A stretch of DNA of 64,000 bases, from positions 59,305 through 123,304 of IMG/VR virus record IMGVR_UViG_3300043774_000656; one strand, written 5' to 3'. This stretch comes from a virus. This document shows positions 8,974 through 63,983 of this stretch, in pieces. A model generated the notes under the pieces. It did not search any database and had not been told where the DNA came from. It saw only the letters and a program-made list of their open reading frames with translations. The number at the start of each line of letters is the position of its first letter. Within the stretch, counting starts at the first letter, position 1. A program made the translations under genes and the position numbers.

Positions 8974-9197
8974 GGGATGATTACTGCTTTTTCATAAGGT
9001 ATTGTGCCGCCTTTTACCCTAAAGCTTTTCTTTACACCACCGATATTTCCGCCGCAATTGCAACTGCCAGTGGTAAAAACACCATATTGATCATATATTT
9101 CACCAACCCTGAACATAACTCCCCTAGGCGTTTTATGATTCTTAATAATCTTTATTCTACCTGAAGGTTTTCTAGTTACCGTATTGATACCGTTCAT
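8970..9197 (-). CDS. hypothetical basic protein
   Basis: ATGA/TAATG coupling to neighbours; CNCGG. Confidence 0.55.
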   Translation of the reverse strand: MNGINTVTRKPSGRIKIIKNHKTPRGVMFRVGEIYDQYGVFTTGSCNCGGNIGGVKKSFRVKGGTIPYEKAVIIP

Positions 9198-9478
9198 TAG
9201 TCCTTTTTGCTTTCTGCCTTCTTTTCAAGGTTCTTTAATTGGATATCTGCAGCAATAGAATCTGTACCTGCTTCGGCCTTTTTATGAATAAGCTTTGCTT
9301 TGGTTACCTCGTCCTGTTTAACACCATCCTTATTCTCTACTTTGTCCAAGGCTTCTTTAGCTTTAGCTTCAGACTGCTTAGCAGTCTTTAATTTATCAGC
9401 CATGTCTTTTTGCTTCTTGCGCTCTTCAGCTGCATCAGAAGCTTCAAATAAAAATTGACCAAAGTTTTTATAGTTCAT
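9197..9478 (-). CDS. charged helical protein with capsid-targeting-like leader
   Basis: Start re-assigned to ATG 9478: MNYKNFGQFLFE-A. Confidence 0.65.
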   Translation of the reverse strand: MNYKNFGQFLFEASDAAEERKKQKDMADKLKTAKQSEAKAKEALDKVENKDGVKQDEVTKAKLIHKKAEAGTDSIAADIQLKNLEKKAESKKD

Positions 9479-12382: not shown

Positions 12383-12835
12383 TTAACGAACGTTGGTAAA
12401 ATAAATGTATGGAAAAAAGTTCTCCATTTGCTGTCTGAAATCATCAGTCTTGATTGCAACTTCAGGCTCTTTGATCGAACCGGTTGGATCATCATCTATA
12501 AGTTCTTGCCAGTACTTAACCTTAAATGAATCTGGCTCAGTTTCATTTTTACATAAGAAGTACTCATACCTGTCTCTCTTATTAGAGCTGTCAAGCATGA
12601 TGTGATGTATTTCATTATTGTATTGACGCATCCTCTCATCGTCAAGATCATAAAAGATACCAACCTTTTTTAAGACCCAGCCTATACCGTTTCTGTTAAT
12701 GATAGAAATATAGGCCAGCTTACCCTTATCCCAGTCGGTTGCATAGTAGTCTATCTGATGGCCATTTGCATCAATAGATCCATAGTTACCTGAAGCCTCA
12801 AGTAGAAATTCGCCAAAGTTTTTAATGCTTCTCAT
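12383..12835 (-). CDS. protein with capsid-targeting-like leader
   Basis: MRSIKNFGEFLLE-A. Confidence 0.7.
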   Translation of the reverse strand: MRSIKNFGEFLLEASGNYGSIDANGHQIDYYATDWDKGKLAYISIINRNGIGWVLKKVGIFYDLDDERMRQYNNEIHHIMLDSSNKRDRYEYFLCKNETEPDSFKVKYWQELIDDDPTGSIKEPEVAIKTDDFRQQMENFFPYIYFTNVR

Positions 12836-22149: not shown

Positions 22150-22425
22150 ATGAAATACTTCCAGTTATTCGAACAATTTATAAACGAGTCGATCTACGAT
22201 ATCGTTGGACGCAAGCAATTAAGAGTAGTTATTGAAGGTGACCCTGTTGCCAAAAATCATGAAAACATCCTGGCTGCTATGCTTAAAGCTGATAATGAGA
22301 ATAGTCTTAAATTCTTTGAAGCAACAGGTAAGATAGTAGGTAATATCACTAAGGTTAGACTTGATGCTATTAAGAGAGACTTGCGTTCTATTTCAAAAGA
22401 TATCGTTATCAGAGAAAAGAAATAA
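22150..22425 (+). CDS. protein with capsid-targeting-like leader
   Basis: MKYFQLFEQFINE-S; isolated plus-strand gene in a minus-strand arm. Confidence 0.75.
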   Translation: MKYFQLFEQFINESIYDIVGRKQLRVVIEGDPVAKNHENILAAMLKADNENSLKFFEATGKIVGNITKVRLDAIKRDLRSISKDIVIREKK

Positions 22426-28715: not shown

Positions 28716-28931
28716 TTACATGCACATATAACTTTCTGTAGTTTGCCAGTAGGCCATGAACTCGTTTGCAGCTTCAGCAACTTCAGACTTGCTGACCGCT
28801 TTATGTAGAGTTCTACGACTTCCCCAAACTCCTCGTAAGTTGACAGTTTCTCGAGTTGACCTGCTTACACGATAGTAGCCGCCTTTGTAATTGACAATAG
28901 AACCGACTGATAGATTATTTTGATCTTTCAT
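28716..28931 (-). CDS. hypothetical protein
   Basis: Start re-assigned to ATG 28931; ends ESYMCM. Confidence 0.7.
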   Translation of the reverse strand: MKDQNNLSVGSIVNYKGGYYRVSRSTRETVNLRGVWGSRRTLHKAVSKSEVAEAANEFMAYWQTTESYMCM

Positions 28932-29086
28932 AGTGTGATTGTTATGGTGTAAATATAACCCAACCCTATCAGAAGCCAAAGAGACCTACTGCTTTTGCAT
29001 TTCTGCCGGATCTTCAACTTCAACCACTAGGTCTATATAGATCGCGCCGCTCCCGCACGCGCAAGAACAACCTTATAAAATAACTC

Positions 29087-29332
29087 TCAACCCCTTGGGG
29101 AACCCGGGGGCACCCCAGGCAATTCAACAGCCCCACAAACTTCAGCAAGCCACCCATCAAATCTTTCCTTATCCAGTCGCTCGTCTAGGTTTACCCAGAT
29201 AAAAAAGAAGCCCACAAGGTTTCGATACTCCAAAATCGTCGCAGAATAACCAAGACTATAATACGTATCAGCCTCAAAATTCTTCCAGTCGTCTGGACGC
29301 CATGTACCGATTATCTGATAGCAACAGGTCAT
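29087..29332 (-). CDS. hypothetical protein
   Basis: ATGA overlap with 29329-29694. Confidence 0.5.
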   Translation of the reverse strand: MTCCYQIIGTWRPDDWKNFEADTYYSLGYSATILEYRNLVGFFFIWVNLDERLDKERFDGWLAEVCGAVELPGVPPGSPRG

Positions 29333-29694
29333 CGTTTCTTCTTACCAGTCTTTGGACTATTATCAAAACTAAAGTCACCATAAGGTGTGTAACCATTGTT
29401 ACGAGGAGCCGAGGGCTCTTGACGATTACTGAGTCGTTCTAGACGTTCAGTCGTCTTTTGAGAAGCTTTAGGCTCGTTAACAGTCTTTTTAGCCTCAGTC
29501 ACCGTAACGGTTACCGGCACCTGATCAACATCAATCAGATAGAAGTCACGATTAGGATCATCAAGACCCTTAAACAGGTCAAGTATAGCCCGAGACCAAT
29601 CAGGGTCAACAATGGCTATCAGGCGATCAGTCACGACTAGACCACTGTCAGGGTCGATATCTCGATAGCGCAGTTCACGATTTTTTGCTTTCAT
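29329..29694 (-). CDS. hypothetical protein
   Basis: 121-aa ORF. Confidence 0.6.
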   Translation of the reverse strand: MKAKNRELRYRDIDPDSGLVVTDRLIAIVDPDWSRAILDLFKGLDDPNRDFYLIDVDQVPVTVTVTEAKKTVNEPKASQKTTERLERLSNRQEPSAPRNNGYTPYGDFSFDNSPKTGKKKR

Positions 29695-30082
29695 AAGGGT
29701 TATAGTCTAAGACTTACAGATTGTCTCAACGGCTTACAGGGTCGACAGAAGGGCGCGCAGACCCGGGCCAGCCCAAAAAATTTTGTAAACCGGTGACAGT
29801 TGCCCTAATACCAAGAGCCCTATAAAAGACATCGCGGGGGCGGGCAGTTCCGGGGCCGGTATAACATTTGCGACAGGGTTCCAACGTTAACCCCTAATAC
29901 TGGGTATATTATAAGTAAACTTGTCATGACACCTACTGATCACCATGAATTTCCAGGACTATAGGGCGTTCACCCGAAAGGCTAGGTTTTTCGAAAACTT
30001 CGAGGATTTCGGAGGTCACCCTCCCCCTCCGTCCGGCAGCACAATCAACAAAGCTACCGGACGGTCATGACCACGTGAGGTC

Positions 30083-30463
30083 TTAGTCTATTCCCTCAGC
30101 CTTTACGGCGTTTCGCCTCTCTTTACGGAGTTTACGCTTTTCGGTTCGGGTAAGTTTCTTTTCGGTATCGGATAGGAGGCTCATCTTAGTACCGCGCATT
30201 TTGCCTCGACCATTAAGTTGGGCTAAACGTACCGCATCCGCAAATAGATTTCTGATCTGACCTTCACCATCACGGCATTTACAAGCGGGGGTGCCATCAG
30301 CCTCATAGTACCATTCCATAAACTCAAAGGTTTGATCCTCATAGTTCGCATCTACTATACGTTGGCCTGATCGGATGTCTTGCCATTCTGGAGGTAGATT
30401 GACAAAGCGATTGCGGGGAGCGGGGATACCTTGACCGAAAAATATTGTTTCTATCTGGAACAT
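30083..30463 (-). CDS. hypothetical protein with basic tail
   Basis: Start re-assigned to ATG 30463. Confidence 0.6.
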   Translation of the reverse strand: MFQIETIFFGQGIPAPRNRFVNLPPEWQDIRSGQRIVDANYEDQTFEFMEWYYEADGTPACKCRDGEGQIRNLFADAVRLAQLNGRGKMRGTKMSLLSDTEKKLTRTEKRKLRKERRNAVKAEGID

Positions 30464-30464
30464 A

Positions 30465-30704
30465 TTAGTTAAGATTATGGGTGAGTTGAATATTGTAAAG
30501 AAGCTCGAGATGGCGGCACATACGGGTGAGCTCGATCTCAGTAAGTTCTGCAATAGGTATAGGTCTGCCAGTGATCCAGTTTAGAAATGACATTTGATTT
30601 TCGTCTATCTCTATATGGACTTGGCGGCCATCATACTCTGGAAAAAGATAATGATCTTCTATAAGCAGAAAGCTGAGGCCTACTATAGGTATAAGCTTAT
30701 GCAT
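30465..30704 (-). CDS. hypothetical protein
   Basis: TAATG coupling to the upstream ORF. Confidence 0.55.
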   Translation of the reverse strand: MHKLIPIVGLSFLLIEDHYLFPEYDGRQVHIEIDENQMSFLNWITGRPIPIAELTEIELTRMCRHLELLYNIQLTHNLN

Positions 30705-30883
30705 TAGCGTATAGTCTTTTTACGGTTAGTGTCAAGTGTAGAGGCGATCTCTTGTGGAGTGCGACCTCTTTCTGTGGCACGTTCTATAAAGTCACGACTA
30801 GTGTTTACCATTGAGGCTGATAGGGCGCTGCCATATCCGAGTTGTCTTAGTGACTGTTCTACTTGTTCGAAAATTGCTTTCAT
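30704..30883 (-). CDS. small protein (59 aa)
   Basis: MKAIFEQVEQSLRQLGYG.. directly behind promoter copy 30891. Confidence 0.6.
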   Translation of the reverse strand: MKAIFEQVEQSLRQLGYGSALSASMVNTSRDFIERATERGRTPQEIASTLDTNRKKTIR

Positions 30884-30944
30884 ATTGTGATTGTTATGGG
30901 TCTAATATACTATGAAAAGAGCTAGGGCCAAAGCCTTTTGCTGT

Positions 30945-31184
30945 TTATTTTTGTGCTGTTACAAAACGTTCAGCCTGGTCATATACGTTTTTGTCAACAT
31001 ATCCAAGCTCTACTAGCTTTGCTCTATAGCAGTCAAGTTCGTCATCTGTCATCAGCTTAAAAAGCTCATAGATACATGACTCATATCTGGCTGCTTTATG
31101 CAAGTCCTCTTCGTACTTCTCTGAGGTGCATTGTTCAAAGCAGTAGATGGCTTCTTTTACCTGGTCGGTGTAGTGTTCGCTCAT
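30945..31184 (-). CDS. hypothetical protein
   Basis: ATGA overlap with the upstream ORF. Confidence 0.6.
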   Translation of the reverse strand: MSEHYTDQVKEAIYCFEQCTSEKYEEDLHKAARYESCIYELFKLMTDDELDCYRAKLVELGYVDKNVYDQAERFVTAQK

Positions 31185-31399
31185 ATACCTTGCTCCATTT
31201 TAAGTTGTTGTGCATGATGCTCGACTTCGCTGTAGACAGCTAAGTTGAGGTAGGTGTTATTCCAAGAGTTGAGGAATAAGTATTCAGCAGCCCATTGGGG
31301 TTCTATTGAGCGGAGCATTCCTGCTTCGTATGCTGAAAGTATTTCTTTGGCTTTAAGCTCTGTGGTGAGCTGATTGATACCGAATATATCTTCTGTCAT
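31181..31399 (-). CDS. hypothetical protein
   Basis: Start re-assigned to ATG 31399, behind promoter 31407. Confidence 0.65.
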   Translation of the reverse strand: MTEDIFGINQLTTELKAKEILSAYEAGMLRSIEPQWAAEYLFLNSWNNTYLNLAVYSEVEHHAQQLKMEQGI

Positions 31400-31948
31400 T
31401 TGTTGATTGTTATGGTGTAAATATACAATGACTGCAGCAGAATCCAAAGAAAAAAACGAAAAAAACAGCAAACAAAACTGTTTTTATCTAACTTATTGAC
31501 AGTAAACATACTACTGATATGTCTGTTTTTAGCTGTCTAGAGGCAGAAAATAGCAGAAGATAGATGATAGTATGTCTGATAAAATGACTGTCTAGAACAG
31601 CTTAAAACTGACCTATTAAGATACTGAAAGTCAGTGAGTTATAACCTATTGATAATCAGTCAGTTACGTATATAAAAAATATAAGCAGGTCGGAGTATAC
31701 TCGGTCCTCATTGAAGAATGATTACATGGCTAATATACAATGAAGGGCTCAGAAGCCAAAGAAAAAAACAGAAAAAACAGCACACCCTAAACTACTGACT
31801 AGCAGTAGGTTAGGTAGAGCACTGAATATAAGTGGGTTAGCTATTTACACTGCACCGCAGCATTTTAAGGTAACAATCAACAATACACATACGATGATGT
31901 AGCCAACAATAAGGGTCCACGTGCTTTTAGATTCTGTGCTCATTTTTC

Positions 31949-32635
31949 TTATACGATTTTTTCAAGGTTCATTTGAGTGATGATGGATTGCGCTTGTGTC
32001 AAGGCTTGCTCATACTCTTCTATTTCGTTTTTCAATTCTTGTATACGGGTTTGGTTGAACCAATCATAGTTGTTCATGGTTCTGATACAGTACTTCTGTA
32101 CAGTATACTCACTTGTCTTGTAGTTATAGCGGATCTGGAACATTCTGGTACCATCTTCACCATTTCTGATATCCATTTCAACCGTGTCATTATCATAGCG
32201 CTCTGCTTTACAACGAGGATTGAACTTGCCTTTAAGCCATGTGTCAATCTGTTGTACATATTCTTGTGCCTCTCGTAGCTTTTGCTTTCGTTCACGTTCT
32301 GCTGTATCTTGTTCACGGCACTTTTCAACTATCTCAGTCAAGCGATTCTTAAGTCGCTTTGGGTTGCCAATCAGCTCACCATACTTGATGTTGGTGGTGA
32401 TACTGCCGTCATGCTTAGACCTATATCGTGTAGTTGCTATAGTGATCTTATCACCACATGGATCAATTGGTACGGGCACGTTATTGATAAGAGCTTTCAT
32501 TGGCCAGTTGCCACGTTCATCTGATTCGATCTGGCACCTAAAGCCTAATGCTGTTATCAGATTGATGAAGTCTTGTTGTTGTGCCTGCCTTTCTTCAGTA
32601 GAGGCACTATAGCTGTAGATCTTTCTTACTATCAT
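31949..32635 (-). CDS. hypothetical coiled-coil protein
   Basis: Start re-assigned to ATG 32635, behind promoter 32643. Confidence 0.7.
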   Translation of the reverse strand: MIVRKIYSYSASTEERQAQQQDFINLITALGFRCQIESDERGNWPMKALINNVPVPIDPCGDKITIATTRYRSKHDGSITTNIKYGELIGNPKRLKNRLTEIVEKCREQDTAERERKQKLREAQEYVQQIDTWLKGKFNPRCKAERYDNDTVEMDIRNGEDGTRMFQIRYNYKTSEYTVQKYCIRTMNNYDWFNQTRIQELKNEIEEYEQALTQAQSIITQMNLEKIV

Positions 32636-32696
32636 TTGTTGATTGTTATGGTGTAAATATACAATGATTGATTCAGAATAAAAAGTGGGTTGCTGA

Positions 32697-33113
32697 TTAT
32701 TTGATTTTGAATGCGTAATCGTCCCATGTCTGTGCTCCAGCAATTCTGTAGTTGTTCTGGCTATACAAGTTGGTTCTAGACCAATCTTGATTGATATCAC
32801 CTACTTTCATTGTCATGAACATCTCTTCATCCATGCTGTGGACATTTTTACCTTTGCGGGCAAATACAGTGAACCAATGTTCTGTACCCTCAGGGTTGAA
32901 TTGAATAGTCTGAAGACCTTTTTGATTGTAGCTTCTGAAAGCATCTATAGCACTAACTGCATATCTGCAATCTGATACTGTCATAAAGCCTGCTTGGCAT
33001 TTAACTATTGCTCTGAACTTTCCTTTTTGACCTTGTATGAAGTTAGTTACTCCGATTCTTTCTGAGTTAGCGAATGCTGTGGTGTTTACTCGTTTTAAGA
33101 TAGTCTGTTTCAT
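32697..33113 (-). CDS. hypothetical protein
   Basis: Start re-assigned to ATG 33113, behind promoter 33122. Confidence 0.7.
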   Translation of the reverse strand: MKQTILKRVNTTAFANSERIGVTNFIQGQKGKFRAIVKCQAGFMTVSDCRYAVSAIDAFRSYNQKGLQTIQFNPEGTEHWFTVFARKGKNVHSMDEEMFMTMKVGDINQDWSRTNLYSQNNYRIAGAQTWDDYAFKIK

Positions 33114-33265
33114 ATTGTTGATTGTTATGGTACTAATATACAATGATTGTTTCAGCGGCCAAAGTTTTTTTTGACAAAAACAGCAAGCATTCCCCACTAC
33201 TTCCCCACCCCCACCTAACCAGCGGCTATGCCAACTCTGGATAGGATGGGGTTTGTTAAGGTTGT

Positions 33266-33775
33266 TTAGGCTAAGGCTTCAGCTGCTGCGTTCTTAGCTT
33301 TTGGGGTAGCTTTAGTCTTGGCAGCTTCTTTAGCTTTAGATGCTTTTTCAGCTTCTTTAGCTTTAGCTTTCTCGGCCTTTGCAGCTTCACGTTGAGCTTT
33401 AGCTTCTGCTTTAGCTTTTGCCTTATCGGCAGCTTTAGCATCACGTGCTGCTTGACGTTCAGCTTTAACTTTTGCTTTCTCCTCTTTAGTAGGAGTGATA
33501 CGTACTCGTGTAGGCTTAAGGTTGCTTACTGTACCGTCTTCAGCAATGACTTCGATCTTGCGGATTTTAGCTCCAGCCTCTACCATCTTGTTGATGTGTG
33601 CGTTAGCTGCATCTGTAGTTTTGAAAGTCACACTGTCACGCTTCTTCTTGAATTTCACGTCACCTTTTGCACGTGACTTAGAATAGATGCGTACTGTCAT
33701 TTTCTCGTCTACTGGTACGTTTACGAGGTTCTTGCTGTTTTCAGCGTTTTGAGCTTTTGCTTCTTTAGCGTTCAT
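33266..33775 (-). CDS. Lys/Ala-rich histone-H1-like tailed protein
   Basis: C-terminal half of AKAEAKA/KAKEAAK repeats; biased GCT/AAA codon use. Confidence 0.75.
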   Translation of the reverse strand: MNAKEAKAQNAENSKNLVNVPVDEKMTVRIYSKSRAKGDVKFKKKRDSVTFKTTDAANAHINKMVEAGAKIRKIEVIAEDGTVSNLKPTRVRITPTKEEKAKVKAERQAARDAKAADKAKAKAEAKAQREAAKAEKAKAKEAEKASKAKEAAKTKATPKAKNAAAEALA

Positions 33776-33867
33776 ACTTTTTATTTTACTGGTTATCGTT
33801 ATTGTTATAGGGTAAATCTAACTAAAAGTTTTGATTCTCCAAAGTTTTTTTGCTGTTTTTTCGGCAA

Positions 33868-34008
33868 TTATTGTAGGCCAATAGCTGAACCTAACCATAA
33901 TACTCCGTAAAATGCTGCAAATAAGCATACTAAACCTAATGCATTCAAAATGAACTCTTTAGGATTTTCAGTGTAGGCTTCTTTAAGGGTGGTTATCATC
34001 TGTTTCAT
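33868..34008 (-). CDS. small membrane protein (46 aa), first leftward gene
   Basis: MKQMITTLKEAYTENPKEFILNALGLVCLFAAFYGVLWLG..; promoter copy 34023. Confidence 0.6.
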   Translation of the reverse strand: MKQMITTLKEAYTENPKEFILNALGLVCLFAAFYGVLWLGSAIGLQ

Positions 34009-34250
34009 ATTGTTGATTGATCTGGTGTAAATATACAATGACTGTTTCAGATTCCAAAGAAAAAAACAGTGTCTTTGCTGTTTTTTCTTAGTATATTGAT
34101 AATCAGTCAGTTACGGTTAGTCCACTTATTTTCAGTCACTTAGCCCGGTCATTATTAAATGCGTGCACATACATGCCCGCCCGTATCAACAACCATGCCA
34201 AAGTCCCCTCTTTGTTAACAAGTATTTGTCAAGTTTTTTCCGTTTTTTTC

Positions 34251-34299
34251 TTTGGCCAGAACAAATGTCATTGTATATTTACACCATAACAATCAGCAA
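34251..34299 (+). promoter_or_regulatory. conserved promoter, first rightward copy
   Basis: TTTG (34251), 19-bp spacer, TATATTTA (34274), CACCATAACAATCAGCAA-ATG. Further rightward copies at 34602, 35958, 36536, 44886, 50137, 58179. Confidence 0.85.
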
Positions 34300-34566
34300 A
34301 TGACACACAAAGAATTTACCCTTACCGTCAAAAAAACTATCTATGAAACTAGTGGATCCGTGAAGGCCACACTATACCGCAAAGGTGAGCAAATCACAGT
34401 AGACGAAACCACCTTTTTGGATCTACAAGCAGGTCACCGCTATGCTAAGTACACCAACAGCGGAGTAGTCTATCTAAGTAAAGACCTTTTCGAAAACGAG
34501 GTCACCTGCACCACAGTTGAGGTCAGCTATACCACCAGGAAACTTGGTCAACGTAAATCAAAATAA
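34300..34566 (+). CDS. hypothetical protein, first rightward gene
   Basis: Start re-assigned to ATG 34300. Confidence 0.7.
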   Translation: MTHKEFTLTVKKTIYETSGSVKATLYRKGEQITVDETTFLDLQAGHRYAKYTNSGVVYLSKDLFENEVTCTTVEVSYTTRKLGQRKSK

Positions 34567-34627
34567 TCAGCAAACCTCTTTGGCCCCTCAACCTTTCATA
34601 GTATATTAGTACCATAACAATCAACAA

Positions 34628-34870
34628 ATGACAAAGACCCTTTTTAAACTTAAAAGCCTTACAGATTACCTGAACGGCCAATGCAGACCATCTGCCGCTC
34701 ACACAATCTCTAAGTACGGCAAGATGTATACCATCATCGGAGACCGTGAGCAATACGTCTACGTAGATGCAGCAGACGTGAAAAACATCCTCGTCCCACA
34801 ACTTTACCGCGAATGCTCAGCATCCGTGACCCAGTTCAACCTTTCTGTAAACGACATCAAAAAGTTCTAA
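34628..34870 (+). CDS. hypothetical protein
   Basis: Behind promoter copy 34602. Confidence 0.7.
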   Translation: MTKTLFKLKSLTDYLNGQCRPSAAHTISKYGKMYTIIGDREQYVYVDAADVKNILVPQLYRECSASVTQFNLSVNDIKKF

Positions 34871-34871
34871 G

Positions 34872-35042
34872 ATGACCACAACTTTCACAGGAGCAGAAAA
34901 AGTCCTCTATCGCGCAGAATACCAATTTGCCATTGACGTGCTAAAGCTTACAGAAGCTGAAGCAACCGAAAAGGCAATGAGTAAGATCCTCTCCACGAGA
35001 GCCCTAAGCAAAAAAGTAAAACGATCAGAATACGGTCACTAA
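34872..35042 (+). CDS. small protein (56 aa)
   Basis: Fills the gap between neighbours; MTTTFTGAEKVLYRAEY.. Confidence 0.55.
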   Translation: MTTTFTGAEKVLYRAEYQFAIDVLKLTEAEATEKAMSKILSTRALSKKVKRSEYGH

Positions 35043-37045: not shown

Positions 37046-37134
37046 GGTCAGGTGGCGGAATTGGTAGACGCACCGAGTGAGCGGCGGAGGTAATAGTCAA
37101 TAACTCCTAACAGGTTCGATTCCTGTCCTGACTA
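37046..37134 (+). tRNA. tRNA-Leu-like (class II) scaffold with degenerate anticodon arm (pseudo-tRNA)
   Basis: GGTCAGG/CCTGACT-A; D-arm GCG-GAATTGGTAGA-CGC; CCG-AGTGAG-CGG mini arm; GGAG/CTCC variable arm; canonical T-arm. Confidence 0.75.
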
Positions 37135-37151
37135 CAAAAACAAGATAGATT

Positions 37152-37576: not shown

Positions 37577-37955
37577 CGTTGGCCGAATTATTGGCGTGAA
37601 AATAGTTGGCCGTAGTTTGACGAGTTATACATGGATGCCTGCAAAGCAGAAGACCACTTTCTTTGGCTTAATCAAAAGAAATAAATGGTGGAGCGAAGGC
37701 TTTTACCAATGTGGCTGCTATCAAGAATGCTATGAAAGTGGATGCTGGGATGCCTGTTCGTATACTGCAGAAGAATTGAGGCGAGATGGCTATATTGTAG
37801 AATCGGGCAAAGTGTATAGTAAACCCTATGTTACAGTGTATCTGGAGTCCGAGTATCAAAGTACAAAGCGCTTCAACACAGAGGAAGAGGCGAAACAATG
37901 GGTTGATGAGCTAAAGGCAACTAGTGGTAAAACATTTGAAATTATAGAACGATGA
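37557..37955 (+). CDS. hypothetical protein with Cys cluster
   Basis: CGCYQECYESGCWDAC. Confidence 0.65.
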   Translation: MIQEQFDVGRIIGVKIVGRSLTSYTWMPAKQKTTFFGLIKRNKWWSEGFYQCGCYQECYESGCWDACSYTAEELRRDGYIVESGKVYSKPYVTVYLESEYQSTKRFNTEEEAKQWVDELKATSGKTFEIIER

Positions 37956-38096
37956 AAGGATTCATGAGTATCGTGATATTGCTAATGGCCCTGTTTATGG
38001 TCATACCAATGTTTTTGCTAATTTTTGAACATATGATGGAGGGTAAAGACTCGATTTTGCAGAAATTGCTGAATAACATCACAGAAGTATAAAACT

Positions 38097-38224
38097 GGTC
38101 AGGTGGCGGAAGAGGGTATTTCCGGATAAAACCCCAGGTAGACGTATAGTTGGTGAAATCCCGAGGCGGGTAATTATTACATAAGCCCCTAACTATGTTG
38201 CAGGTTCGAATCCTGCTCTGACCA
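38097..38224 (+). ncRNA. tRNA-scaffold RNA 3 (expanded D-loop and central arm)
   Basis: GGTCAGG/TCTGACC-A; GGCGGAA-[GGGT..ACCC insert]-GGTAGACG; ATAGTT/AACTAT long stem; T-arm GCAGG-TTCGAAT-CCTGC. Confidence 0.78.
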
Positions 38225-38243
38225 CTAAAATAGATATTAGTAA

Positions 38244-38915
38244 ATGAGAAAGTTTTTTTCTTTAGCCCTAATTTTTGCCTGGCTGTCGTCAGTTGCTCAA
38301 GAGCCCATTGAGGGTAAGGATGCCGGGTCTGTCCATTGGCGAGTTCAAGTTGGAGCATTTCAAAAACCAGATGACCTGAGATTCGATAACTTTAAAGATG
38401 TTGGGAGAGAATGTGAGAATGGTATTTACAAATGGACAGTAGGCTTTTTTACAGATCGAGAATCGGCTGTTCTCTATAGGGACAGTATTAGGGTTACAGG
38501 TTACCCTGATGCCTTTGTTGTAGGATATCTTGACGGAAAGAGATCTTCTCTGAAAGAGATCGAGACCAATAGGGTAGATTTAGATGCCTTCAAGCCAGAT
38601 ACAGTACAGATTACAGTAACTGATACAATATGGGTTCCGGGCAAAGAAGTAGGGGCCATTGAGAAGGTTGCGGTTGCGGATTCGGTTAATAACGATGGTA
38701 TTGATATAGAATTGATGCGACAGAAATTAAACAGGATAACCTGGATGAAGGTTGCTCTAGGTCAAACTGCTCTAGTTGGAGGTGTAGCACTTAGCATAGT
38801 AACAGGGGCTTGGGTTCCTGTCATGATGGGTGTTGCAGTAGTCGAGCTTTATCTGTTAACGGAGAGTAAGTATCGTTTCAATCGTAGAGATCTCAGAAAA
38901 ATTACCGGGTACTGA
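38244..38915 (+). CDS. exported SPOR-like domain protein with C-terminal membrane segments
   Basis: Signal peptide; WRVQVGAF...YKWTVG...GYPDAFVV; two hydrophobic C-terminal stretches. Confidence 0.75.
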   Translation: MRKFFSLALIFAWLSSVAQEPIEGKDAGSVHWRVQVGAFQKPDDLRFDNFKDVGRECENGIYKWTVGFFTDRESAVLYRDSIRVTGYPDAFVVGYLDGKRSSLKEIETNRVDLDAFKPDTVQITVTDTIWVPGKEVGAIEKVAVADSVNNDGIDIELMRQKLNRITWMKVALGQTALVGGVALSIVTGAWVPVMMGVAVVELYLLTESKYRFNRRDLRKITGY

Positions 38916-40199: not shown

Positions 40200-40817
40200 A
40201 TGAGTTACCTGATCTTCAATGACTTTATAGATGAGACAGAAACTACGCAAATAGTTGACTGGATATCTGGACTAAGTTCTGGGACAGGCATGCCAAATCA
40301 CCATCTCGGTGAATTATCAAAATCACTTAACGGCAGTAGTACAATATTTGATATTTCAAAGACTGAAAAAACCGGTTATATTACCAGTTTCCAGTCTATA
40401 TCAGGTGTAAGACAAGAAGATGTGCCGAAATTTATCAAAGATATTATTACACGTATTAGTAACAAGTTAAGCATACCAACAGATAATGTATTTTTACAGG
40501 CTGTTGACATGCATAAAGGCGGAACTATACAGAAACATTATGATGCCTCAATTGATGGCTATATAAACTATAAGTGTAATATCAGTGTCTTGGCCGAAGA
40601 TTATAAATTCTGTGTAGATGGTTCTACTCTTTTAATTAAACAGGGCGACATGTATTGCTTTGAAGCATCTCTATATAAACACTGGACACCAGAGCCATTT
40701 AATTCAAGACGTGTGATGTTAAGCTTTGGCTTTGTATTGCCCTATGAAGCGTTAAATAGAAGTGAAGATGACCCCAGGGTCAGATTAAGCAAGAGAATCG
40801 AAAAGTATTTTCAATAA
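40200..40817 (+). CDS. 2OG-Fe(II) oxygenase-family protein
   Basis: HYD facial-triad start, distal H (YKHWT), RRVMLSF. Confidence 0.8.
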   Translation: MSYLIFNDFIDETETTQIVDWISGLSSGTGMPNHHLGELSKSLNGSSTIFDISKTEKTGYITSFQSISGVRQEDVPKFIKDIITRISNKLSIPTDNVFLQAVDMHKGGTIQKHYDASIDGYINYKCNISVLAEDYKFCVDGSTLLIKQGDMYCFEASLYKHWTPEPFNSRRVMLSFGFVLPYEALNRSEDDPRVRLSKRIEKYFQ

Positions 40818-57494: not shown

Positions 57495-57730
57495 TGTATA
57501 ACTTTTATCTAATAGCATATAAACCGGAGCTCAGTGAACCTGTATTTGAAAGGTTTATGCTGACAGAAGATGATGCTAAAATTGCTGGCTTTGAAAATTT
57601 TGCAGAATATTGTAATGCTGTGTTAAATCAGATTACAGAAGAATGTGAAAACGCACAGGCAAGATATATCCTCTTGAACCAAGAGGAATATATGAAACTA
57701 ATTATAAGAATGGGAGAAAAGGTATTATGA
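57494..57730 (+). CDS. hypothetical protein
   Basis: Coupled on both sides. Confidence 0.6.
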   Translation: MYNFYLIAYKPELSEPVFERFMLTEDDAKIAGFENFAEYCNAVLNQITEECENAQARYILLNQEEYMKLIIRMGEKVL

Positions 57731-58143
57731 GAATATACTTAGACGACTTAAGAACGCCAAAAGAAAATGACTGGACTGTTGTACGAAACTACGAAGAGTT
57801 CGTCAACAAAATTACAGAAATTGGCTTGGATAAAATAGAATTGATCTCTTTAGACCATGATCTTGGCGATTCAGCAATGGCTGAATGGTGTAATAATGTT
57901 TATCAAAACTATACCTTAAACTACGATAACATTACTGAGAAGACAGGTATGGACTGTACTAAATGGCTCGTTGAACAATGGTTAAATGGAGCACCGGTCT
58001 GTAAGGTGATGGTACATTCTGCGAATGCCGTAGGATCAGCAAACATGATGGGCTATATCAATAACTATAGACATATCCATCGTTTACCTCAAGATTGCGA
58101 AAGATGGGTTGTACCCCATACTATCGAAACTATAATTGAGTAA
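57727..58143 (+). CDS. cyclic-phosphate-processing receiver-domain protein
   Basis: IYLDDLR, ISLDHDLG, TGMD, VHSANAVG. Confidence 0.85.
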   Translation: MRIYLDDLRTPKENDWTVVRNYEEFVNKITEIGLDKIELISLDHDLGDSAMAEWCNNVYQNYTLNYDNITEKTGMDCTKWLVEQWLNGAPVCKVMVHSANAVGSANMMGYINNYRHIHRLPQDCERWVVPHTIETIIE

Positions 58144-58190
58144 ACTGCAAAGCCCTTTGAAACATGGGCTTTGCTTTTTATATTTACACT

Positions 58191-58853
58191 ATGAAAATCG
58201 AACTACAAAAGGGACAAAGGCTTTGGTTTACAAGTGACACCCACTATAATCACTCTAATATATGTAGGGCAACTACAAGATGGAAAGATTCTGATAATGT
58301 GACACGTGATTTTAGTTCATTAGAAAAAATGAATGACGAATTAGTGTTCTGGATAAATGAAAGAGTAGCCCAAGATGATATCTTAATACACCTAGGTGAT
58401 TGGTCGTTTGGCGGTTTTGATAGCATCAAACAGTTCAGAGATCGTATTATTTGTAAAAATGTACACTTGGTACTCGGTAATCACGATCATCATATCCAGA
58501 GAAACAAAGATAATGTACAATCACTTTTCAGCTCAGTACATGACTATTTACATCTAGATGTCTGCTGGTGGGTTAAAGAATGGAAGGTAGCTAAAAAAGA
58601 GCGCCAGCATTTTATTTGTATGCACTATCCTATTGCCAGTTGGAATGGAATGAATGACGGAGTGATTCACTTACATGGTCACGTTCACTTACCCAACCAT
58701 TTAAGAGTATCAGACGGTAAAGCAATGGATGTCGGTGTTGATGGAAACGAAATGGAACCTATCAGCTTAGAAAATATATTAACGATCATGAGGAATCAGC
58801 CAGTTGCTAAACTGGCTTTGCCAAAAGATCATCACGAAAAACGATTAGTATGA
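58191..58853 (+). CDS. calcineurin-like metallophosphoesterase
   Basis: SDTHYNH, HLGDW, GNHD, HYP, HGHVH, DVGVD; start ATG 58191. Confidence 0.92.
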   Translation: MKIELQKGQRLWFTSDTHYNHSNICRATTRWKDSDNVTRDFSSLEKMNDELVFWINERVAQDDILIHLGDWSFGGFDSIKQFRDRIICKNVHLVLGNHDHHIQRNKDNVQSLFSSVHDYLHLDVCWWVKEWKVAKKERQHFICMHYPIASWNGMNDGVIHLHGHVHLPNHLRVSDGKAMDVGVDGNEMEPISLENILTIMRNQPVAKLALPKDHHEKRLV

Positions 58854-59239
58854 ACACACTAGTATTACTTAGAGGTTTACCCGGAAGTGGCAAATCAACC
58901 ACGGCAAAGTTATTTGATAAAGCTCCTCATTTTGAGGCTGACATGTATTTCATGGATGCCGATGGAAACTATCAGTTTGATGTATCTAAAATCAAAGATG
59001 CCCATAACTGGTGCCGACATTCTACAATGGATGCCATGAAAAGGGGATATCCTATTGTTGTCGTTTCAAATACGTTCACTCAAGAATGGGAAATGGAGGC
59101 ATATTATCTGTTAGCTGAAGAACTCGGATATCGTGTAGTTTCAATGATTGTTGAAAATCGGCATAATGGTAAAAACATACATGGTGTACCAGCTGATAAG
59201 TTAGAGATAATGAAAAACAGATTTGAAATAAAACTATGA
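58850..59239 (+). CDS. P-loop polynucleotide-kinase-like (AAA_33) protein
   Basis: LRGLPGSGKST, EADMYF, VVSNTF, NIHGVP. Confidence 0.88.
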   Translation: MNTLVLLRGLPGSGKSTTAKLFDKAPHFEADMYFMDADGNYQFDVSKIKDAHNWCRHSTMDAMKRGYPIVVVSNTFTQEWEMEAYYLLAEELGYRVVSMIVENRHNGKNIHGVPADKLEIMKNRFEIKL

Positions 59240-59397
59240 CACTTTTCGAAGCATTAATGAGCAAAGGCTACTCATCAGATGAAGCCAGACAAGTTGTATT
59301 TGAAATGAAAGAGAGAGTTCTCCAGGGTGAAGATCCGGAAGAACTTTTATACGAAGAAGGGCTAGAACCCGATTATATAATGGACTTACTTATGTGA
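59236..59397 (+). CDS. small acidic protein (53 aa)
   Basis: GEDPEELLYEEGLEPDY; ATGA-coupled. Confidence 0.6.
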   Translation: MTLFEALMSKGYSSDEARQVVFEMKERVLQGEDPEELLYEEGLEPDYIMDLLM

Positions 59398-59399
59398 TT

Positions 59400-60512
59400 A
59401 TGAAATACGCACACTACGATAAACTTGAAAAATACATGGCAGATGGTCTGATTGAGGTGAATAAGCACCCTGATCTGCCTCTGTATATCTACAACTATTC
59501 TCGTAAAGTGCAGTATGAGAGACTATGGGACGAAGTAACTATAGGATGTAGAGGTCTTATCCTTGATGAGACAGGTGAAATAATTGCTAAAGGCTTCGAC
59601 AAGTTCTTTAACTTTGAAGAGGTTGGAGAATTAGACTGGGCTTCTACAGAATATGTTTGGGTTCAGGAGAAGATGGACGGTTCACTGGGTATTCTTTTCT
59701 ATTATGCAGACAAGTGGCATCTGGCAACCAGAGGTTCTTTTACTTCAGAGCAGGCAAAACGAGGAATGGAAATCCTGAAGAAAAGATATGACCTAAATAA
59801 GTTTGTCAAAGAGGCAGTCTTTGTTTGTGAAATCATTTATCCTGAGAATAGAATAGTTGTTGACTATGGCGGTGAAGAAAAGATCGTCTTCTTGTCAGCA
59901 TTCTCTAATGACACGGAACTTTCTGTAACTACAGCGCAGATGCTGTTCTTTGTTTCTGGAGTAAATGTTGAAGATATTGTACTTACAAACCAGGTATATG
60001 ACGGTTCAAATCAGTCAATGCTTCAATTTCTAAAAGATCAGAATGCTGAAAACAGAGAGGGTTATGTAGTCAGACTGTGGCCATCTAATACCAGGGTTAA
60101 AATCAAGTTCGAGGAATATGTACGTCTACATAGACTGTTTACTAATTTCTCAAATCTAGATATCTGGGAATATCTAAAAGAGGGCAAAGACATAAACGTT
60201 CTCTTAGAAAATGTTCCTGATGAATTTGATAAATGGGTTAAAGGCACAATATCAGATTTGAGATATCATAAGTATAAAATTGAAGAATACGCCGGAAAGG
60301 TCCATGAGTATTTTAGATATGGCAAATACGGTGATGTGGATCCAGAGCCTACAAAAAAGGAGTTCGCCCTACATCTTGAGAAATGTGACATGAATCCTCG
60401 TGTAAAAGCCCTATGCTTCATGATCTGGGACGGTAAGAATATTGAAAAAAAGGTCTGGGACATGGTCAGACCTAAGTACCAGAAACCATTCTGGAGTAAG
60501 GAAGATAAATAA
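59400..60512 (+). CDS. RNA ligase, T4 Rnl1 family
   Basis: CRGLI, KFFN, EKMDGSLG, ATRGSF, EIIYPENRIVV, EGYVV, RVKIK. Confidence 0.92.
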   Translation: MKYAHYDKLEKYMADGLIEVNKHPDLPLYIYNYSRKVQYERLWDEVTIGCRGLILDETGEIIAKGFDKFFNFEEVGELDWASTEYVWVQEKMDGSLGILFYYADKWHLATRGSFTSEQAKRGMEILKKRYDLNKFVKEAVFVCEIIYPENRIVVDYGGEEKIVFLSAFSNDTELSVTTAQMLFFVSGVNVEDIVLTNQVYDGSNQSMLQFLKDQNAENREGYVVRLWPSNTRVKIKFEEYVRLHRLFTNFSNLDIWEYLKEGKDINVLLENVPDEFDKWVKGTISDLRYHKYKIEEYAGKVHEYFRYGKYGDVDPEPTKKEFALHLEKCDMNPRVKALCFMIWDGKNIEKKVWDMVRPKYQKPFWSKEDK

Positions 60513-60529: not shown

Positions 60530-61879
60530 ATGGAGAATATATTTAATCTTAAGAACTTTACAGAGTTTGTAAACGAGGCAGTAAGAACAAAAGATGCACC
60601 TAAAGCATTTGACCTGATTGCTTCATACATTTCTAGAAAAATGGGAGAGCAACTTTACCCATATCCAGAATTTGAAAGATATTCAAAAAGTGATGGCTCA
60701 TCCGGTTTCGGTAAGAGATATTACACTGACAGCGCAAAATCTGTAAGATTAAATGTTGAAGAAAGTGAAGGTTCTACTGACATCACTTCTATTGACTATT
60801 GGGATGGTAGTAGTTCTGAACCCGCATGGACTATTGATGGCCATGGTCAGAGTCTTGCTAAAGTTTTACCACAGGTTGCTGACAGACTTGTAAACCCAGA
60901 AGCTGAACTGGTTGCACCAGATGAGGTAAATGAGGCAAAGAAAGTTGATGGTAATATGATAAAAGATATCATCAAACTTAGCAGCCAAATGAATGCAAAA
61001 CAAATTGCTAGTCAAGTTGGTTTAAGCCCTAAATCAGTTCGTGAAATCCTGAAAGAGAATAATGTAGTTAGTGCACGCCCTGCTGCTAAAGAAAAGAGAG
61101 AAGAGTCGACAAGTGAAATCGACATGATCTTCAATAGTGAATCAGCTTTAAAAGATAAAGTTAAATTGCTTGATGAGATCATGGAAGATATTGCAGACGT
61201 TGTAAACGCCGTTGCTCTTGGAAATGTTAATGGTCTTATGATCTCAGGTAAAGCAGGTACTGGTAAAACACATACAGTTACTTCGGCTCTTGACAAAGCA
61301 AGTTGCCAATATGTAACAATAGCAGGTTCTACAAGTACTCCGGGTATTGTTGAAACTCTTTATGATAACAACAACGGCGTAATTGTATTCGATGACTGTG
61401 ACAGTGTATTCGATGAGCAAGAAAGTAGAAACATTCTTAAAGCAGCCCTTGACACTAAAAAGGTACGTACTATCTCCTATATGAAGAAGAACCCTAAGTT
61501 CTACGATCCTGAGAAGATTATGTCACCTGAGCAACTTGAAGAGGTTGAAACCGCAGGTCGTATTCCTAATCGTTTTGAATTTACAGGTCGTATCATCTTT
61601 ATTTCTAACCTTAAGAAAGAGAAACTCGATCCAGATGGTGCAATTCGTTCAAGAAGTTTGATTATTGACGTTTCACCAGATGACATGACTATCATGGAGA
61701 GAATGAAGCGCATGCTTAAATTCATGGAACCAATGGACATGTCAATGGAAGAAAAGGAAGAAGTCTTTGAATTTATTAAAGACAGTAAAAACGTTTCAAT
61801 GAGAACATTTGTGAAAGCTGCCTTATTCAAGCAAACCGGTTGTTCAAACTGGAAGAGAATTTTGACCCGTTACGTTTAA
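60530..61879 (+). CDS. AAA+ ATPase with N-terminal domain, HTH and capsid-targeting-like leader
   Basis: LKNFTEFVNE-A; AKQIASQVGLSPKSVREIL; GKAGTGKT; VFDDCD; IFISN; AIRSR. Confidence 0.85.
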   Translation: MENIFNLKNFTEFVNEAVRTKDAPKAFDLIASYISRKMGEQLYPYPEFERYSKSDGSSGFGKRYYTDSAKSVRLNVEESEGSTDITSIDYWDGSSSEPAWTIDGHGQSLAKVLPQVADRLVNPEAELVAPDEVNEAKKVDGNMIKDIIKLSSQMNAKQIASQVGLSPKSVREILKENNVVSARPAAKEKREESTSEIDMIFNSESALKDKVKLLDEIMEDIADVVNAVALGNVNGLMISGKAGTGKTHTVTSALDKASCQYVTIAGSTSTPGIVETLYDNNNGVIVFDDCDSVFDEQESRNILKAALDTKKVRTISYMKKNPKFYDPEKIMSPEQLEEVETAGRIPNRFEFTGRIIFISNLKKEKLDPDGAIRSRSLIIDVSPDDMTIMERMKRMLKFMEPMDMSMEEKEEVFEFIKDSKNVSMRTFVKAALFKQTGCSNWKRILTRYV

Positions 61880-62631
61880 GATAACTCAAATCTAATTTTA
61901 GATCCATCTGGCTTGCTGTAGACCAGATGGGTTGGGGTTACGGTGTATGCTTTATCTGCTAGACGCTCTACATACTTTGGACCTTCGCCCTTCTTTAAGT
62001 ATGCCACGGTCATATGTGGCTTATAATCAGGATATGATGTTGTATGTGGAAGTTGTCTTAAATTGAAATTACAACCATGTAGAGTTGGATTTTCAGCCTC
62101 CATCTTTAAGACGTCAAAATCATTTTGAAATAATCCGGCGCTGTGTAGTTTAATAGTACCTGCTAAGCCTCTGGCAGCTTCTTTAACCTGCTCATCTGTT
62201 ACCTGGCTACTGTGTATACCATAAAGTAGAGTAACGTGCGGTTCATCTTCAAGACCCTTTTCATTTGAGTCAAGATCTTTTGGGTCAACCAGGTCATGGA
62301 GATCTCCCATTTCTGGAAAATCAAAATATACCATTACACAACCATAATCATAGGTCACCTTGGCCTCATCCACACCCAGTTGCTTTTTAACTTCTGCTCT
62401 AACTTTTTCCATTTTCTGTGCGTATTCTGGGTCACTCTTTTTATTAAATGCTATCTGTTGATTAAGGCTTCCAGTAATTTTCTGCATATCACCGTCTCTG
62501 GTTTTAATTAACCATTTTGCCAAATCTTTAATTCCAAGATCTCTGAATCTGCCTTCGGCATCTGGTGCATCACTGTGGTGAAAATCTCCTATTTCGGAAA
62601 TAAATTGCTCAAAAAGTTTAAAGTACTTCAT
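61876..62631 (-). CDS. 2H phosphoesterase, Acb1/T4 gp57B-like, with N-terminal extension
   Basis: GCVM..PHVTLLYG and YKPHMTVAY (two HxT motifs); leader MKYFKLFEQFISE. Confidence 0.85.
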   Translation of the reverse strand: MKYFKLFEQFISEIGDFHHSDAPDAEGRFRDLGIKDLAKWLIKTRDGDMQKITGSLNQQIAFNKKSDPEYAQKMEKVRAEVKKQLGVDEAKVTYDYGCVMVYFDFPEMGDLHDLVDPKDLDSNEKGLEDEPHVTLLYGIHSSQVTDEQVKEAARGLAGTIKLHSAGLFQNDFDVLKMEAENPTLHGCNFNLRQLPHTTSYPDYKPHMTVAYLKKGEGPKYVERLADKAYTVTPTHLVYSKPDGSKIRFELS

Positions 62632-63563: not shown

Positions 63564-63983
63564 ATGCGCTTAGATGAACTCAAGGATGTTATCAATGACA
63601 TGATAAAAGAGCATGACATCAAAGTTGTCAGAAAGCGCTTCAAGTCACCAGCAGGCAGAGCCTGGGTTCAAAACAGAACAATCAAAATTCCAAGCATAGT
63701 CGATTTTCAATCAGCAGGTACTGCAATTCATGAAATTGCCCATATCATTCTAGGCCATGATGACGAAGTACCTGATTATATCTGTGAATATGATACAGAA
63801 AGATGGACGATCGAGTTCTTGAAGCTCTGTAATATGAATATAGACTATAAAGCAGAGTATGAAATCTATATAGAAGGCGCTAAGGCCAATGTCAGAATGC
63901 ATATAGAGCGCCAAATCAATCGTGATATCAAAAAGGGTCGTAAACCTAGAATAAGGAAGAAAATCATAAAATGGGCGGAGTAG
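63564..63983 (+). CDS. IrrE/ImmA-like HExxH metallopeptidase
   Basis: AIHEIAHIILGH..E. Confidence 0.75.
   Translation: MRLDELKDVINDMIKEHDIKVVRKRFKSPAGRAWVQNRTIKIPSIVDFQSAGTAIHEIAHIILGHDDEVPDYICEYDTERWTIEFLKLCNMNIDYKAEYEIYIEGAKANVRMHIERQINRDIKKGRKPRIRKKIIKWAE

Follow-up and report, generated by a model that had tools for sequence, protein, structure and literature searches.

The DNA analysed here, a stretch of 64,000 nucleotides referred to below as the window, forms the final 64 kb of a single viral contig of 123,304 bp (IMG/VR record IMGVR_UViG_3300043774_000656), which is classed as linear, is estimated to be 45% complete and carries genes for replication, nucleotide metabolism, the baseplate and the tail. 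Close to the right end of the window, on the minus strand, lies an ATG-started open reading frame (ORF; 61876-62631) that encodes, according to its sequence and the ORF list, 251 amino acids followed by a stop codon. The ORF comprises a leader, a helical module and a 2H phosphodiesterase domain, and it is judged to be a real gene because 947 of the 1336 candidate homologues of its product prove homologous at E <= 0.001. Comparison of sequences and analogy with phage T4 suggest that virus particles probably contain the 2H enzyme and inject it together with the DNA, and it is this proposal that we develop and weigh here. The position of the gene is itself unusual. Between 34300 and 63983 all non-overlapping ORFs are on the plus strand except the 2H gene, which bears out the first-pass annotation, where it was singled out as the sole clear minus-strand gene of the right arm; the other minus-strand ORF of this arm (138 aa, 37942-38358) overlaps plus-strand ORFs, has no PHROG match and is doubtful. 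The 2H gene converges with a plus-strand gene for a 449-aa AAA ATPase (60530-61879), the stop codons of the two overlapping at 61876-61879. The ATPase bears a similar leader (..NFTEFVNE↓A, the arrow marking, here and below, a putative cut), and the same pair of genes occurs in the closest related locus (L007).

Three parts can be distinguished in the encoded protein, all read from the minus strand. The leader occupies residues 1-13 (MKYFKLFEQFISE; 62593-62631) and is proposed to be a capsid-targeting propeptide with a putative cut after E13. It is followed by the helical module (residues 14-89, 76 aa; 62365-62592), delimited with the help of 190 short homologues and the alignment, whose last three residues, V87-D88-E89 before A90 (62365-62373), constitute a proposed second protease site recognised by alignment to shorter forms of the protein. 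The remainder is the 2H phosphodiesterase domain (residues 90-251, 162 aa; 61879-62364), identified from the structural model, fold matches and PHROG 755. The first catalytic motif, H132-V-T134 (in PHVTL; 62230-62238), is apparent from the sequence and the homologue alignment, and the second, H206-M-T208 (in PHMTV, within Y-P-D-Y-K-P-H-M-T; 62008-62016), from the alignment. An AlphaFold2 model built from an input alignment of 88 homologues reached a mean pLDDT of 85.6. Residues 1-24 are modelled with low confidence, the helices of the module (27-31, 34-44, 49-66 and 68-84) reach a pLDDT of about 80 and residues 93-251 exceed 90; the sequence G-V-D-E↓A (residues 86-89 and 90) falls in the coil that separates helix 68-84 from strand 97-104 of the model. 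The anatomy noted in the first-pass annotation, i.e. a leader, an extra domain of ~75 aa, the GVDE-A site and the PHVTL and PHMTV motifs, is thus confirmed by the ORF, the sequence, the model and the alignment.

On the evidence of its sequence and predicted structure, the gene is confirmed to encode an intact enzyme of the 2H superfamily, with both H-x-T motifs and the 2H fold of two beta-stranded lobes around a cleft. Across the 88 aligned homologues no substitution is seen at H206 or T208, and at least 90% of the sequences retain H132 and T134. A Foldseek search of the model against PDB gave 44 matches at E <= 0.001, the matches listed being 2H enzymes, with the chain 9q2g at the top (3.7e-6), and VIA structure comparison yielded Z scores of 12-13.8 to 2H enzymes over ~130-157 residues. 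The domain further matches PHROG 755, named 'RNA ligase', at 6.7e-11.

As to the kind of 2H enzyme, the family profile points towards Acb1, an enzyme that cleaves 3'3'-cGAMP, cA3 and related signals. When the 88-homologue profile was compared with 177,635 PDB sequences at E <= 10, it retrieved only 9q2g (3.5e-4), 9q2y (8.1e-3) and 7t26 (0.022), all of them Acb1-type, and no LigT or CPDase chain was found by this profile at the same threshold. The sequence Y-P-D-Y-x-P-H-x-T is common to the 2H protein and these three chains, and its second motif aligns to DYPDYRPHIT of the FBB1 Acb1 and to FDDYTPHIT of T4 57B. Pfam searches with the 88 homologues matched the Acb1 family in 84 cases (best 4.1e-10) and 2_5_RNA_ligase2 in 74, both at E <= 1e-3. 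According to the available part of the report describing it (10.1101/2025.08.21.671373), 9q2g is 2H PDE-9 of Burkholderia phage BCSR5, which degrades 3'3'-cGAMP and is put in one structural group with T4 Acb1. Like Acb1 (T4 57B; FBB1, 7T26/7T27) and PDE-9 (9Q2G/9Q2Y), which are the only solved proteins found by the family profile, our protein has a 2H fold that is compact (~160 residues) and carries the HxT/HxT tetrad; it differs from them in bearing a leader and an extra module, and is just 16-19% identical to them in sequence. The FBB1 Acb1 (7t26) aligns with the model at 2.5 A, covering 129 of 137 residues. Acb1 has been described as having base-stacking aromatics (Y12, W74, F107 and W147) and a C-terminal lid, residues 145-152 (PMC9117128, as far as its accessible text goes). 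In our protein the invariant F168 aligns with F of the FBB1 Acb1 and Y200 lies within the common YPDY motif, and the model ends two residues past its last strand, leaving no evident C-terminal lid of the Acb1 type. We therefore call the enzyme Acb1-like after what appear from sequence to be its nearest characterised relatives, not as a proven member of the Acb1 family. An attempt to sort 2H families by fold failed, as neither Foldseek nor Z scores separated Acb1, LigT, CPDase and Usb1; the structural comparison of Acb1 with LigT proposed in the first-pass annotation came out at Z 13.1 vs 12.3, i.e. with no separation. BFVD matches of the model show 2H domains embedded in very large actinophage proteins (883-1102 aa) as well, and one such protein, from Gordonia phage GMA2, bears the name putative structural protein; this would suit 2H enzymes carried by the head or tail in other groups of phages.

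The leader resembles the capsid targeting sequence (CTS) of phage T4, MKTYQEFIAE (PMC8442874, in the portion available), with which ipII and ipIII begin in the T4 record (MKTYQEFIAE↓A), ipI beginning with MKTFKEF.... The accessible text of PMC9026906 states that the first 10 residues suffice for targeting, residues 4 and 7 being responsible for the targeting proper and residues 8 and 10 directing processing, and that the T4 protease gp21 cleaves after L/I-x-E, chopping the scaffold at many such sites. Counted back from the Glu, the CTS positions 4, 7, 8 and 10 are P7, P4, P3 and P1, and the leader of the 2H gene has F7 at P7, F10 at P4, I11 at P3 and E13 at P1, matching the T4 spacing exactly. 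The leaders on the contig in general have F, F, I/V/L and E at these positions, and one contig ORF begins with MKTFNEFITE↓G. As in T4, unrelated proteins of one genome thus share a short N-terminal peptide whose P7 and P4 are aromatic, whose P3 is I, L or V and whose P1 is Glu, and related phages carry head genes of the gp21 and gp23 families. Differences exist as well: the cargo here is an enzyme fusion whose parts have pI values of 6.95 and 5.41, whereas the T4 proteins are small and basic; the length of the leader varies; head genes are absent from the contig; and the scaffold part of the relatives' protease bears tandem copies of the motif. In T4 itself, 57B (Acb1) adjoins ipI (L116 11592-12411), and its start, M-M-E-F-K-D-F-S-T, is similar to the first half of the tag of ipI, M-K-T-F-K-E-F-T-S-T, with no L/I-x-E close behind. 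A signal peptide was considered for the leader of the 2H gene and rejected, because this charged, amphipathic peptide does not resemble the lipoprotein-type N-termini of other contig ORFs.

The recurrence of the leader is far above chance. The motif F-x-x-F-[ILV]-x-E occurs within the first 15 residues of 11 of the 166 contig ORFs, compared with a mean of 0.098 and a maximum of two in 500 shuffles, and 14 times in the contig proteins altogether. A search of the first 28 residues for a looser pattern, open to any aromatic residue, gives 17 of the 166 ORFs vs 0.68 in shuffles, although at least three of these 17 (ribonucleotide reductase, dUTPase and helicase) look like chance occurrences inside known enzymes; the same pattern marks 20 of 230 ORFs in a related viral record of 160 kb (G2) and 5 of 263 in another of 214 kb (G1), the shuffles giving 0.7-0.9 for the contig and G2. 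Positions not fixed by the pattern are biased, too: among 42 leaders, P2 is N in 21, P5 is E, Q or D in 30 and P1' is S, A or G in 24. The copies differ in their codons and upstream DNA, so selection acts on the peptide. Both the genome-wide recurrence and the match to the four functional positions of the T4 CTS support, at the level of sequence, the view taken in the first-pass annotation that the leader is a tag of the delivery type.

Tagged proteins of the contig include a 365-aa ATP-grasp enzyme, the 449-aa AAA ATPase, a 421-aa protein and several small ORFs. Those recognised in the window from the ORF list and the motif count include a 75-aa ORF (8746-8973, minus strand; leader MKLLSFSQFVNE↓G), a 93-aa ORF (9197-9478, minus; MNYKNFGQFLFE↓A), a 150-aa ORF (12383-12835, minus; MRSIKNFGEFLLE↓A), a 205-aa ORF (40200-40817, plus; MSYLIFNDFIDE↓T) and a 91-aa ORF (22150-22425, plus), whose leader MKYFQLFEQFINE↓S is nearly identical to that of the 2H gene. 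This last ORF is a lone plus-strand gene among the minus-strand genes of the left arm, mirroring the position of the 2H gene. The motif is also found internally, at domain borders, in two contig proteins outside the window, namely at residue 66 behind a DUF3008 domain (L001 5433-6296, minus) and at residue 608 behind a cytidylyltransferase domain (L001 6752-10096, minus); the first 400 residues of the latter protein correspond to a separate gene in G2. ATP-grasp enzymes are tagged in both phages (L004 470-1567, minus, and L105 10752-12257, plus, in G2), and the G2 enzyme is RimK-like with a Zn-protease-like tail and stands beside the head protease in the head gene region.

The head genes of related phages provide a possible explanation of the tag. 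Homologues of 47 of the 166 contig ORFs are present in G1 or G2 and of just three in Maribacter phage Molly; a 6-kb megablast against phage records gave no DNA match. The gp21 family (PF03420) scores above the Pfam cut-off in all five large records with a 2H homologue and in four of five further records, the single miss among these 10 being a 53-kb fragment, and the gp23 family (PF07068) is encoded next to the protease in 5/5 related records. The protease ORF of G2 matches PHROG 207 (head maturation protease) at 4.6e-43 and finds its nearest relatives among Lak phages, T4-like phages and uncultured huge phages, the last being the only ones that match closely. In five records the protease heads a protein of 600-642 aa, the middle part of which repeats Y-x-x-Y-[LIV]-[AG]-E (L087-L091, G001-G005). 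The protease ORFs contain 3, 3, 6, 8 and 4 copies of [FYW]..[FYW][ILV].E, in one of them eight in a row at a spacing of 14 residues, and a conserved F-F-x-F-[LI]-x-E↓[SA] resembling a cut site precedes the C-terminal domain (~140 aa) of the protease-scaffold proteins. We infer from these sequences that the motif may be the recognition and cutting site of the protease of this clade, with which the start of the relatives' capsid proteins, M-x-x-L-I-N-E↓A or ↓S, is in line; the leader would then be a single scaffold unit worn by the cargo.

The helical module seems to have an independent history. Six homologues of 174-177 aa (P0007, P0008, P0010-P0013) lack it and pass straight from the leader into the 2H domain, reading MKYFKLFEQF-I-M-E↓A-N-Q-Q-Y-D-Y-G, and are up to 96% identical in the 2H domain; a seventh short form (P0009, 164 aa) begins inside the leader. 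All five aligned forms of 250 aa contain the insert and V-D-E↓A, where V-D-E aligns with the I/L-x-E of the short-form leader. Conversely, residues 1-92 used as a query retrieved 190 proteins of 30-137 aa, with 59-100% identity among the matches listed. The stand-alone homologues of the module are leader-tagged proteins of ~85-100 aa; in an alignment of 17 of them most have a like leader and 31 columns are invariant. The module has no Pfam or PHROG family, a PDB fold search gave a best E of 2.4, and its matches in a protein atlas are viral hypothetical clusters only. Since the short forms lack the insert and the module exists on its own with a leader, comparison of these sequences indicates that the 251-aa protein arose by the recent joining of a 2H enzyme and a common small protein, both of them tagged, the junction keeping a minimal cutting motif. 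This agrees with the suggestion of the first-pass annotation that GVDE-A is a second site in a two-part precursor, as VDE↓A is aligned to the end of the short-form leader. The [ILV]xE sites of the 251-aa protein number four (residues 6, 11, 87 and 149), as chance predicts, the noteworthy ones being the two at borders. A stand-alone module gene lies near the 2H gene in only two of 79 other loci, so the two genes are not a conserved pair. The ORF gp185 of the phages Molly and Colly, upstream of and in frame with the 2H gene with a stop codon between them, was considered as a homologue of the module and dropped on account of its weak resemblance.

A survey of leaders in 63 distinct homologues from 80 viral loci suggests, from the sequences of neighbouring ORFs, that the aromatic tag goes with the genome and not with the 2H enzyme. 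An aromatic leader begins 11 of these proteins and an aliphatic one (e.g. MKKLIDVLTE) 21; a further 21 have some other extension, many of these being near misses of the leader, nine have none and one is truncated. The aromatic tag is borne by 20 of 337 neighbouring ORFs at loci with an aromatic-leader 2H gene, 2 of 552 at aliphatic-leader loci, 1 of 271 at loci without a leader and 16 of 509 at mixed ones, these loci being interrelated and hence not independent events. In Molly, where the 2H protein has no leader, the motif is found in 1 of 199 ORFs (0.77 expected by chance), and there are no aromatic scaffold repeats. In other related phages a different leader 'dialect', ..I-K-x-[IV]-M-G-[IL]-x-N-E↓G/N, is shared by a 135-aa ORF (L125 1215-1619, plus) and their 2H homologue (L063 2767-3333).

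From the anatomy, catalytic motifs and fold of the protein, the recurrence of its leader, and the head proteases and scaffold repeats of the relatives, we infer with somewhat less than even confidence that the gene encodes a capsid-targeted precursor processed by a head protease, the 2H part of which would be an injected, signal-degrading phosphodiesterase. The leader (residues 1-13), acting like the T4 CTS and resembling one unit of the scaffold repeat of this clade, would join the prohead scaffolding core, and a gp21-type head protease would cut after Glu13 (I-S-E↓I) and probably also after Glu89 (V-D-E↓A). The head would then contain two separate products, the helical protein (76 residues) and the 2H phosphodiesterase (162 residues). 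Both parts would be injected with the DNA. By means of its two H-x-T motifs the enzyme would then open 3'-5' or 2',3'-cyclic phosphodiester bonds, the likeliest targets being the nucleotides by which the host signals immunity, as in CBASS or type III CRISPR, and host signalling might be blunted ahead of any phage gene expression.

Several observations weigh against this reading, besides the interrelatedness of the loci noted above. The contig, covering ~45% of the genome, contains no gp21-type protease, scaffold or gp23-type capsid gene; as it is that incomplete and devoid of head genes, the missing part probably carries the head module. The argument from the protease rests on relatives that share just ~28% of the contig ORFs, and no virion proteome was found for any relative. 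Proteases of the S77 family are present also in Molly (whose gp21-type protease is barely above the Pfam cut-off) and Colly, the 2H proteins of which have no leader, so the protease alone predicts nothing. The junction has only V at P3 and E at P1 and lacks the aromatics, and with four [ILV]xE sites in the protein it may be due to chance. As for the substrate, the protein itself scores below the Pfam thresholds of 2_5_RNA_ligase2 (PF13563, 26/27 bits), Acb1 (PF23474, 23.4/27) and LigT_PEase (PF02834, 22/23.3), hhalign matches the family only weakly to T4 57B (47.6% probability, 22 columns), and structure ties Usb1 (Z 13.8), an archaeal LigT-like chain (13.2), the FBB1 Acb1 (13.1), PDE-9 (12.5) and E. 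coli LigT (12.3) within ~1.5 Z. A full set of enzymes for healing and sealing RNA ends adjoins the 2H gene, both here and in the closest relative (L007). The Acb1-like 2H enzyme announced by the first-pass annotation consequently holds as regards an intact enzyme whose three PDB profile matches are all of the Acb1 type, and falls short at the Pfam Acb1 threshold (23.4 vs 27). Its overall interpretation, an anti-defence nuclease packaged beforehand, is likewise favoured by the intact 2H domain and the T4-like tag and weakened by the contig without a head protease, the missed Pfam Acb1 assignment and the adjoining RNA-repair cluster.

A further point of this kind concerns the leader. In PDE-9 the N-terminal 15 residues form a lid of the active site (10.1101/2025.08.21.671373, available portion), so the short N-terminal helices of some homologues could be lids as well, and N-terminal extensions of at least nine residues are present in 53 of the 63 distinct homologues. 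Together with the size of some tagged enzymes (the 449-aa AAA ATPase and the ATP-grasp enzymes), which would be unusual cargo for a head, these facts could be accommodated by a cytoplasmic Acb1-like signal degrader whose leader is a docking helix for another phage assembly or a chaperone, a stability tag or, in the short forms, a PDE-9-like lid. We regard this as quite unlikely: in the 251-aa protein 76 residues separate the leader from the 2H domain, the peptide is found on unrelated proteins in the dialect of each genome, and its end fits the head protease's cleavage rule while its sequence reproduces the scaffold repeat. The lid in particular was rejected as the principal explanation of the leader, as the motif is on 11 of 166 ORFs and the tag tracks the genome.

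The RNA-repair genes adjoining the 2H gene raise the question of a different substrate. Upstream of the AAA ATPase gene, on the plus strand (57727-60512), Pfam and PHROG matches reveal a leaderless cluster of cREC (PF20274, 3.8e-24), a metallophosphatase (calcineurin-like), a P-loop kinase (AAA_33), a 53-aa ORF and an Rnl1-type ligase (PHROG 562, 1e-59); the 2H gene lies 1.4 kb from the ligase gene, with the genes for the kinase, metallophosphatase and cREC further upstream. The tie of the 2H gene to these genes appears loose. In the fetched flanks of 80 loci, Rnl1 is found within 10 kb of the 2H gene in eight, the kinase in 12, the phosphatase in 10 and cREC in six, and among related records Rnl1 is present in two of five and absent from a complete one of 271 kb that has the 2H gene. 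The 2H enzymes of the LigT/ThpR type and the 2',3'-cyclic phosphodiesterases of the tRNA-ligase type have the same fold and catalytic motifs as our protein, and with a kinase, a phosphatase and an Rnl1 ligase nearby the locus recalls T4 Pnkp and Rnl1, the phage model of such repair; it differs in that the 2H gene stands on the strand opposite to the repair genes, with a leader that those enzymes lack.

Two alternatives follow this line. The protein may be packaged and processed just as we propose, with its 2H domain acting on RNA from the onset of infection, either by healing 2',3'-cyclic ends or by trimming in the manner of Usb1. Host anticodon nucleases and other metal-independent RNases leave ends with a 2',3'-cyclic phosphate. 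The evidence from the leader is the same for this alternative, the repair genes adjoin in the same layout in L007, the Usb1 and LigT-like chains equal Acb1 in structure scores, and the 2H enzymes of jumbo phages are treated as specialists for 2',3'-cyclic phosphates in the accessible text of PMC7824862. The repair enzymes, however, being leaderless and encoded on the other strand, would not travel with the 2H protein, and the cluster already has cREC, which the same text proposes to be an opener of cyclic ends; nor does the linkage to the ligase appear to be conserved, and the PDB profile matches are of the Acb1 type only. On balance, an RNA substrate for a packaged enzyme appears unlikely to us.

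Still less probable, in our opinion, is an ordinary cytoplasmic cyclic phosphodiesterase of RNA repair, cooperating with the adjoining kinase, phosphatase and Rnl1 and bearing a peptide unrelated to the capsid. Such a role would suit the gene neighbourhood, the annotation of the relatives' 2H proteins as members of the 2'-5' RNA ligase superfamily, PF13563 as the top (sub-threshold) Pfam match and the absence of head genes from the contig. It gives no account of a peptide that is present on 11 of 166 ORFs and copies both the T4 CTS and the scaffold repeat of the relatives, and it sits poorly with a 2H gene on the opposite strand with overlapping stop codons and with a complete related genome in which the 2H gene is present and Rnl1 absent. 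The accessible part of PMC5512222 states that neither the 2H domains of phage polyvalent proteins nor their solo forms have ever been observed alongside RNA ligases.

The capsid-targeted, signal-degrading precursor that we favour has precedents in print, i.e. the T4-type tags, Acb1 and a prediction of head-delivered 2H domains made in 2017. In the study of polyvalent proteins containing this prediction (Iyer, Burroughs, Anand, de Souza, Aravind 2017, PMC5512222, available text), 2H domains delivered from the phage head were proposed to destroy nucleotide signals of the host. The idea of a head-carried 2H enzyme, delivered together with the DNA and degrading signals, is common to those proteins, in which 2H is fused to MuF or portal domains, and to the one described here. 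The latter differs in being small (251 aa), in having no MuF, portal or multi-effector domain according to Pfam and PHROG, and in its delivery by a putative cleavable tag of the T4 type. A literature search of partial coverage found no paper describing an Acb1-like enzyme behind a T4-type tag, and in the accessible portions of their reports Acb1 (PMC9117128) and PDE-9 (10.1101/2025.08.21.671373) are not described as virion proteins.

Other features of the window can be mentioned briefly. A scan for sigma-70 promoters and terminators gave 7 promoter-like sites vs 6.7 expected, with nothing above chance, and a survey of upstream k-mers assigned the 2H gene to no clear expression class. AT-rich boxes precede some genes, and ATAACAA stands upstream of many genes of the middle region; within CCATAACAATC it is found ~14 nt before the start codons of many genes near the divergence of the arms (e.g. 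28716-35000), with an enrichment of ~9x. A tRNA-Leu gene with the anticodon GAG (37046-37135, plus strand) is the sole tRNA gene in the window. Beyond the 2H gene, a 139-aa ORF (63564-63983, plus) has an H-E-I-A-H motif and matches PHROG 87 'metallo-protease' at 4.3e-5; Molly and Colly have a small annotated 'protease' near the corresponding end of their genomes.

Seen more broadly, it is possible, albeit doubtful, that a whole clade of large uncultured phages with T4-type heads uses the scaffold unit F-x-[EQ]-F-[VIL]-N-E as a universal capsid address, by which it loads a changing set of enzymes (2H, RimK-like ATP-grasp, AAA ATPase); the 2H protein would be a ready-made Acb1-like destroyer of CBASS or type III CRISPR signals, active from the very outset of infection and travelling with a widely conserved injected protein of 76 residues. 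The 76-residue module is common in metagenomes, and its fusion to a 2H enzyme would offer the first handle on it. The tag is short and portable, and it might find use in packing phage heads with foreign proteins, a purpose for which that of T4 is already employed. If the proposal is true, the capsid-targeting rule of T4 would be a general, readable code in uncultured phages, and injected proteins, the first actors of an infection, would become predictable from sequence alone. Counter-defence by degradation of signals would then need not await early gene expression, as the enzyme would come with the DNA.

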